From SAR202 cluster bacterium (lineage in GTDB: Bacteria > Chloroflexota > Dehalococcoidia > Lucifugimonadales > UBA826): DNA of 64,000 nt. The DNA lies in assembly GCA_022447825.1 (NCBI GenBank), contig JAKUTY010000001.1, positions 4,599-68,598 on the forward strand, read 5' to 3'. The notes under the pieces were generated by a model. That model had not been told where the DNA came from. It did not search any database and saw nothing but the letters and a program-made list of their open reading frames with translations. Shown here piece by piece: positions 5,595 to 6,431 of the stretch. The translations under genes were made by a program, and so were the position numbers. The stretch's first letter is position 1, and each line of letters begins with the position of its first letter.

Positions 5595-6431
5595 TTAATC
5601 CAAAGTCAACGGGGTTTGATCATTGTTAGCCCACTCACCCATAGAACCATCATAGTTTCTTACTTTCTCATATCCCAACATTTTTAAAACAAAATATACG
5701 TGCGCCGCACGAATTCCACCTTGTCAATAAGTCACAATTTCCTTCTCGTGAGTAATACCATTTAAGTCTAATATTTCTTGAATTTCCCTCTTAGACTTAA
5801 AAGTTTGAAATTGATCTTTATTTAAAAAATTAGTCCATTCAATATGAACTGAACCGGGAACATGACCGGTTCGGTTATTTCCTCTAGAATTAGAACCATC
5901 CCATTCTCCATCAGATCTAACATCTAAAAATATTACATTTTCATTATTTACCCTATCTACACCTTGATCTAAGGTACAAATTAAATCAGGATTAGATTTA
6001 GGGGTAAATTCAACGAGATTAGTGTTTTTAATTTCATTTGAAATTGGACGACCTTCATCAAACCATTTTTTCCAACCCCCATCCAAAACCTTAGCATTTG
6101 AATGTCCATAATAATTTAATACCCACCAAAATCTAGCTGCCCATAAGCCTCCACCACTGTCATAAGCTACTACAGTAGTATCATCACCAATACCTATATC
6201 TTCAAAAATTTCTTTGACAACATCTGGGTCAGCAACCCATGGATATTCTTTTGGATACTTCGCATACTCTGGATGTTTGATGTAATGATGTACTTTAATT
6301 CCCACAGCACCAAAAATATGTGCTCTTACAAAAGAATCATAAATATCACAATCGACTATACAAATATTTGGATTATCTAACGATTTTCCTAACCATTCAG
6401 TTGAAACTAAAAAGTCATTGTTTTCATTCAT
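5595..6431 (-). CDS. Two-domain rhodanese (thiosulfate/3-mercaptopyruvate sulfurtransferase) with an in-frame TGA (5724-5726) at the catalytic Cys position; candidate selenoprotein
   Basis: The ORF-track product ends ...EKEIVTY at TGA. The same frame then continues [42 protein letters not shown] to TAA 5595-5597. This completes the active-site loop [C/U]QGGIR and the conserved rhodanese C-terminus. Confidence 0.85.
5699..5711 (-). promoter_or_regulatory. SECIS-like stem-loop 12 nt downstream of the in-frame UGA
   Basis: The mRNA reads UGA CAAGGUGGAAUU CGUGC-GGC-GCACG. The 5-bp GC-rich stem can be extended by flanking A-U/G-U pairs. It is built from the GC-rich codons CGT GCG GCG CAC, which are atypical for this AT-rich genome. 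Confidence 0.5.

Follow-up and report, generated by a model that had tools for sequence, protein, structure and literature searches.

Introduction

In 2005 Zhang, Fomenko & Gladyshev described a new selenoprotein family, 'Rhodanese-related sulfurtransferase, COG2897', in data from the Sargasso Sea; it was represented by 3 sequences, and a predicted selenocysteine insertion sequence (SECIS) was drawn for AACY01016424. Analysis of the Global Ocean Sampling (GOS) data in 2008 contributed 8 plus 1 further selenocysteine (Sec) rhodanese sequences, and the family is listed in reviews of 2022 and 2026 as 'COG2897 (SseA)' and 'rhodanese-like form 4, UxxG'. Here we analyse a gene of this kind on the minus strand of a 64,000-nucleotide stretch of DNA (the window) from a SAR202 cluster bacterium of the Dehalococcoidia (contig JAKUTY010000001.1, positions 4,599 to 68,598). 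An in-frame UGA (5726..5724) takes the place of the catalytic Cys of a two-domain rhodanese sulfurtransferase in this gene and is followed by a SECIS-like hairpin. An earlier note, made from the sequence of the window alone, had put the gene forward as a candidate selenoprotein and mentioned predictions of Sec rhodaneses from ocean metagenomes, which the Sargasso Sea and GOS reports bear out. We consider it very probable that the UGA is a Sec codon and that the window gene is a genuine selenoprotein gene.

The kind of gene is already known, as a bacterial selenoprotein family predicted since 2005, and no difference between the window protein and that family could be demonstrated in a comparison made by description, that is by domain type, motif and marine origin. 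Common to both are derivation from marine metagenomes (Tara Oceans scaffolds in the present case), two rhodanese domains of the COG2897 type, a predicted catalytic Sec in a U-x-x-G motif (U-Q-G-G here) and a putative SECIS after the UGA. A look-up of the family cluster returned none of the accessions AACY01016424, MQG53192.1 and MCY3690685.1. The present analysis extends the family far beyond the few sequences first published, to at least 80 species-level genomes from several phyla, and it adds statistical evidence of SECIS constraint, an arylsulfotransferase-like (ASST-like) neighbour and a mis-annotation that persists in public records.

The SECIS of Escherichia coli fdhF, studied by the Böck laboratory, is reportedly bound by SelB through a minimal upper stem-loop that lies 11 nt past the UGA and has a G-containing apical loop.

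A two-domain rhodanese with UGA at the catalytic position

The rhodanese open reading frame (ORF) occupies 6431..5724 on the minus strand, with an ATG at 6431, 235 codons and TGA 5726..5724 as its terminator, and the same frame then remains open for 42 codons as far as a TAA at 5597..5595. Reading through the UGA gives a coding sequence at 5595..6431 (minus strand), ending in this TAA, whose product of 278 aa has the UGA-encoded residue at position 236. When the stop was replaced by Cys, this product matched the Pfam rhodanese family PF00581 with 126 bits in two stretches. The best stretch covers aa 158–269 (profile positions 6–101 of 102), crosses position 236 uninterrupted and delimits a C-terminal catalytic domain (5625..5960, minus strand) that is continuous over the UGA. 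The N-terminal, non-catalytic rhodanese domain covers aa ~6–130 (6042..6416, minus strand), with boundaries estimated from the two Pfam stretches and from the alignment to the Thermus enzyme described below.

Comparison with solved structures agrees with the presence of two tandem rhodanese domains. The window protein has the same two-domain fold, along its whole length (E = 3e-39 to 6e-33), as the enzymes of Thermus thermophilus (PDB 1uar), Mycobacterium (3aax/3hwi) and Azotobacter (RhdA, 1e0c), with the catalytic residue aligned in the six-residue loop. The alignment with 1uar runs end to end over residues 6–274 (2.9e-39), as do those with 3aax and 3hwi. The UGA (5724..5726, minus strand) falls on the catalytic Cys of 1uar (IVVY-C-RIAERSSH) and of the other solved thiosulfate sulfurtransferases, where it opens the active-site loop of the C-terminal domain; 120 metagenomic homologues that encode an identical active-site peptide likewise have Cys in this place. 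Where the Cys enzymes of the 1uar type have the loop CRIAER, the window protein has UQGGIR, with a predicted Sec236 as nucleophile. The reading frame and product length given in the earlier note, the completion of the catalytic domain by the codons past the UGA, the replacement of the catalytic Cys and the SseA/thiosulfate sulfurtransferase (TST)-type architecture that it named were all confirmed by this analysis.

E. coli SseA (NF008557; PDB 1urh) has the same architecture, and NF008557 (SseA, 3-mercaptopyruvate sulfurtransferase) is the best NCBIfam match, but its score of 115.4 bits lies below the curated cutoff of 250 and identity as an SseA orthologue was rejected. The family NF041203 (rhodanese_LYCAU (seleno)protein), which has a single domain and a CxU motif, was also rejected, with a score of 41.6 bits against a cutoff of 115, no qualifying stretch and the motif Y-U-Q in the window protein. 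The window protein is more similar to the TST-type structures than to 1urh and, judged by sequence comparison, is nearer to the thiosulfate sulfurtransferases than to SseA and other 3-mercaptopyruvate sulfurtransferases.

Conservation of the UGA and of the frame beyond it

A protein search returned 1,421 relatives, and DNA was retrieved for the 80 best species-level relatives, which together with the window gene form the family set of 81 genes. Among the best 120 of the 1,421 relatives (51–100% identity), 118 are 235–247 aa long and 119 cover just ~83% of the query. All 12 of the truncated relatives for which sequence was retrieved end in ...(V/I)(T/P)Y, which indicates truncation by gene callers at one and the same codon. 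At the DNA level, TGA is present at the equivalent of codon 236 in all 80 of the best species-level relatives (81/81 with the window) and is followed in every one of these 80 by the conserved in-frame peptide QGGIRAAH...TPL and then by a genuine stop.

The TGA form is spread over at least four phylum-level lineages and over loci with a GC content of 34–68%, the genomes being labelled Dehalococcoidia/SAR202, Binatia, Deltaproteobacteria/Thermodesulfobacteriota/Syntrophobacterales, Entotheonella and Gemmatimonadetes (a Gemmatimonadota metagenome-assembled genome, MAG). The closest GTDB representative, an uncultured Chloroflexi MAG (L001), has a rhodanese 97% identical to that of the window; the next are SAR202/Dehalococcoidia MAGs with 64–67% identity.

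Codons +10 to +38 past the UGA have a ratio of non-synonymous to synonymous substitution (dN/dS) of 0.083 across the 81 genes, a sign of strong purifying selection, with ordinary synonymous variation at invariant residues. This indicates that the segment past the UGA is read as protein in this frame. The gene combines an in-frame UGA opposite Cys in homologues with conserved coding on both sides, as looked for in a selenoprotein gene.

These data bear directly on the possibility that translation truly ends at the UGA, yielding a 235-aa product that lacks the catalytic loop and leaving the downstream 126 nt as a conserved non-coding or separately translated element. All public gene calls do end at the UGA, as entries of 235–247 aa, and with release factor 2 (RF2) present some termination at a Sec UGA is to be expected in any case. 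However, in 81/81 genes the sequence past the UGA shows protein-type evolution in the frame of the ORF, and it has no conserved start codon of its own. It also completes both the Pfam rhodanese domain and the alignment to the solved structures, and the next gene begins 3 nt past the second stop rather than past the UGA. We regard termination at the UGA as a very improbable account of this gene.

Under the preferred reading of the UGA as a Sec codon, the short public entries are products of annotation. Members of the family are entered as 'hypothetical protein' or 'sulfurtransferase' of 235–247 aa, cut at the Sec codon and deprived of the active site; NCBI entries of this type, 238–243 aa long, include P0006, P0016, P0143, MBR97913.1, MBS57959.1 and MCH8186105.1 among others. 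Recognition of the Sec-rhodaneses would therefore be of value for annotation, as public records still lose their active site.

UGA as a stop codon in this organism

Recoding of a single UGA has to be distinguished from reassignment of the codon throughout the genome. The window contains prfB, the gene for RF2, at 58780..57752, with a CTTTGAC frameshift site just upstream at 58796..58790; the gene and its CTT TGA C site together span 57752..58796 on the minus strand, and the product scores 456 bits against TIGR00020 (cutoff 370). TGA also terminates 5/53 of the long ORFs in the window. From the prfB gene with its UGA frameshift site and the TGA-terminated ORFs it follows that UGA is a genuine stop in this organism, as the earlier note had argued from the autoregulatory site of RF2.

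Two scans of the window for in-frame TGAs revealed no other selenoprotein. They drew attention to a gene for a collagen-like lipoprotein at 51499–52062 (minus strand), in which G-X-Y repeats follow an '...AMIAC' signal and a TGA (51894..51892) stands at a Gly position. Recoding of this TGA was rejected, because GGA is found at the same position in 8/8 sister contigs from other samples; it is confined to this assembly and represents a nonsense variant or an error.

The collagen-like gene shows that the window can hold a spurious TGA, and it is the one such case that could be cited in favour of a sequencing or assembly error, or a recent pseudogene, at the rhodanese locus. The rhodanese TGA, however, recurs unchanged in three independent Tara assemblies, and it is shared by the 97%-identical MAG and by every one of the 80 species representatives. 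Because the three independent assemblies share the codon, it is not an assembly error, and we treat this explanation as refuted.

A hairpin tied to the UGA

Twelve nucleotides past the TGA the minus strand carries CGTGCGGCGCACG (5711..5699), which in the mRNA can form a core SECIS-like hairpin, CGUGC-GGC-GCACG, with a 5-bp stem and a GGC loop (5699..5711, minus strand) encoded by the codons for R241-A242-A243-H244. The earlier note had described this hairpin and taken its codons, CGT GCG GCG CAC, to suggest selection on RNA structure; the position of the hairpin was confirmed, and codon usage across the family supports the proposed selection.

Around the UGA the 81 genes use TAT at Y235 in 81/81, TGA in 81/81, CAG in 76/81 and ATC in 75/81, and within the hairpin they use CGT at R241 in 79/81 and GCG, GCG and CAC in 81/81 each. 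The two Gly codons of the spacer vary freely. Codon entropy at invariant residues is usually ~2 bits for Arg, 1.6–1.9 for Ala and 0.8–1.0 for His and Tyr in these genes and collapses near the UGA; CGT, nearly fixed at R241, is the rarest Arg codon elsewhere in them. Synonymous sites are frozen in the TGA forms at Y235, Q237, I240, R241, A242, A243 and H244, a block that spans 5699..5729 (minus strand) in the window.

As a control we used the 120 Cys forms with an identical active-site peptide, which had been obtained by a metagenome-wide pattern scan. Their R-A-A-H codons comprise 55 different 12-mers, and CGTGCGGCGCAC occurs in 1/120 of them against 79/81 TGA forms (Fisher p = 1.4e-52). This contrast indicates that the frozen nucleotides are due neither to the peptide nor to codon bias but are tied to the UGA. 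In terms of sequence pattern, the frozen hairpin is a SECIS-type signature. With the putative SECIS inside the codons of the active-site loop, the family offers an unusually clean natural comparison of Sec and Cys forms of one peptide, which could help to train SECIS predictors.

RNAalifold predicts the core helix from the family alignment, with 97.6% of helix cells paired. Most members have a stem of 6–7 bp, (U)CCGUGC-GGC-GCACGG(A), that starts 11 nt past the UGA and has a folding energy of -12.7 kcal/mol (z = -2.8); the distance from the UGA to the apical loop is 17 nt and the first loop positions are G. The basal pair has undergone two compensatory changes from C-G to A-U, and one G-U is present. 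Bacterial SECIS elements are characterized by their spacing from the UGA, a GC-rich stem and an apical loop that begins with G, and the family hairpin fits this consensus. The compatibility with bacterial SECIS elements suggested in the earlier note stands on this comparison, with a stem-loop directly past the UGA, a spacer of 11–12 nt and a G-containing GGC loop, distance and loop being judged by the consensus in the literature.

The hairpin resembles the fdhF SECIS in its location within coding sequence right after the UGA, in its spacer (11 nt for the majority of members and 12 nt for the window), in its GC-rich stem and in the G at the first loop position. It differs in that the family loop has just 3 nt (GGC) as long as the closing C-G pair stays formed, in that no bulged U is evident and in that it has no Rfam match.

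A larger structure may also form. The 45 nt of the window from the UGA onward have a minimum-energy fold of -11.7 kcal/mol (z = -2.15), and this fold suggests a possible extended SECIS at 5688..5725 (minus strand) in which the spacer would pair with the F-V-L codons as a lower stem. Across the family an analogous lower helix is paired in 82% of cells, with a register that differs in the window, and no covariation beyond that of shuffles was detected for it in the 81-gene family.

Two Cys forms, at L091:2358-3188 and L096:4462-4491, have TGT/TGC at the catalytic codon and retain the full hairpin sequence ATC CGT GCG GCG CAC. Within the Sec clade these two apparently represent a recent change from Sec to Cys, or else errors of base calling. 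The single full-length Cys homologue (P0109) was rejected as a control on similar grounds, as its TGT is accompanied by an intact hairpin, which suggests either an error or a recent conversion from Sec to Cys.

Proposed decoding and the weight of the evidence

We propose that UGA 5726..5724 is recoded during translation, with CGUGC-GGC-GCACG acting as a bacterial SECIS. By analogy with E. coli, SelB-GTP-Sec-tRNASec would bind the hairpin with the UGA positioned in the ribosomal A site and would compete with RF2, and ribosomes on which RF2 prevails would release a catalytically dead fragment of 235 aa. The full product would be a two-domain rhodanese with the selenolate of U236 as nucleophile in the loop U-Q-G-G-I-R. 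Transfer of sulfane sulfur (or selenium) would presumably proceed via an Se-S (selenosulfide) or an Se-Se, perselenide-like intermediate in place of the Cys persulfide. In marine Dehalococcoidia the rhodanese is probably expressed together with the ASST-like gene, whose start lies 3 nt past the true stop.

The same hairpin could in principle serve the insertion of another amino acid, either through a SelB-dependent, tRNA-Sec-like tRNA charged with Cys or through leaky read-through by near-cognate tRNA-Trp at a weak UGA-C. The fixed U-UGA-C context (TAT in 81/81, with C always the next nucleotide) is also a context for leaky termination, and the existence of Cys forms with a complete hairpin (L091 and L096) suggests that the Cys and Sec states interconvert easily. 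Near-cognate read-through, however, needs no hairpin frozen at an exact spacing, and Trp in the place of the catalytic nucleophile would kill the enzyme. As for Cys, TGY codons are available and are used by hundreds of homologues, so that retention of UGA in 81/81 genes implies a benefit beyond that of Cys. The Dehalococcoidia are, moreover, documented in BSepDB as among the most selenoprotein-rich bacteria, with 46–49 selenoprotein genes in individual MAGs. Insertion of another amino acid therefore seems unlikely, if somewhat less so than termination at the UGA.

Several observations count against the proposed insertion of Sec. The hairpin of the window itself is weak, with 5 bp, a folding energy of -5.4 kcal/mol and a U.U mismatch at the sixth pair, and it is not significantly stabler than shuffled sequence (z = -0.75 for the 24-nt hairpin). 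The upper helix is nearly invariant and so offers minimal covariation support, and neither an Rfam search of the entire window with gathering thresholds nor one of 5500–5800 in E-value mode returned a SECIS family. No selA, selB, selD or tRNA-Sec gene was present in the 64-kb window or the 10 kb on either side of it (84 kb in all), nor in the flanks of the 80 related loci. Finally, no experimental demonstration of Sec insertion in the Sec-rhodanese family was found in the literature examined.

The structural points have to be read together with the comparative data. The window fragment of 57 nt that begins 6 nt upstream of the UGA gave z = -1.36 against shuffles, and the significance of the window hairpin comes from the comparative data rather than from its own stability. 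Similarly, because the helix is almost invariant, support for the structure comes from the contrast at synonymous sites and not from covariation. The matches that the Rfam scans did return were chance, snoRNA-like ones.

The missing sel genes weigh only weakly against Sec insertion, since less than 5% of a genome was visible and this is no evidence of absence. The searches behind this result were of several kinds. ARAGORN found only a tRNA-Pro in the window, and neither the 112 tRNAs from the 80 related loci nor the Tara flanks included a tRNA-Sec, while NCBIfam and Pfam scans of 27 window proteins detected no sel genes. A tblastn search with E. coli SelA, SelB and SelD against the window and the 80 loci gave a single match, in L020, which was rejected as EF-Tu.

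The ASST-like neighbour and the surrounding locus

The gene directly downstream of the rhodanese (4521..5591, minus strand) encodes an ASST-like protein, with matches to PF05935 (1.2e-16) and PF14269 (1e-13), a weak match to PDB 9kf4 ('Sulfotransferase') and no obvious signal peptide. A gap of 3 nt separates the TAA of the read-through ORF from its ATG, and for this reason the two genes are probably co-transcribed. An ASST-like gene is found directly downstream in 36/80 related loci and 1–2 kb downstream in 3 more; all of these loci are labelled Dehalococcoidia, SAR202 or Chloroflexi/Chloroflexota, and the neighbours differ in other lineages. A functional link between the rhodanese and the ASST-like protein is plausible.

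Papers on sulfur cycling in SAR202 invoke rhodanese as an ordinary enzyme, leaving a need for selenium unnoticed. A selenium requirement would tie the sulfur metabolism of SAR202 to the selenium supply of the dark ocean. A more far-reaching proposal is that the Sec-rhodanese and the ASST-like beta-propeller form an undescribed, dedicated module for selenium-dependent sulfur/sulfuryl transfer, such that the 'rhodanese' step of SAR202 sulfur-cycling models would be selenium-dependent and, secondarily, that the Sec form is dominant and probably ancestral in the clade, with a 13-nt SECIS core invariant across phyla. We offer this proposal as speculation that is rather doubtful.

The wider locus has ~33% GC and contains rpoB/rpoC, the suf and nuo operons, prfB and a gene for a 'YYY' membrane protein of Chloroflexi/Archaea. 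Genes of the window recur on several Tara Oceans scaffolds, the longest of 161,664 bp, with identical proteins and, where checked, 99.8–100% identical DNA.

The flanks of the rhodanese (window 986–4348 and 6475–10734) encode LarB (of the nickel-pincer cofactor), a GH88-like protein, an F420-type luciferase-like oxidoreductase and a Chlor_Arch_YYY/DUF2298 membrane protein of 1,419 aa, in an order preserved in ~14–16 of the closest loci. The YYY gene is divergent from the rhodanese and starts 44 nt from the rhodanese ATG.

For two sizeable ORFs of the window, at 22650–24260 (plus strand, 536 aa) and 52218–53252 (minus strand, 344 aa), NCBIfam gave no match at E <= 1e-10, and for the 344-aa ORF no Pfam match is on record in eight contigs either. 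About 5 kb to the left of the window start, on Tara scaffold_36 (L086:2715-4670), a region of ~1.9 kb that resembles a 16S rRNA gene, and could serve for phylogenetic placement of the organism, has no called gene and adjoins a tRNA-Ala(UGC).

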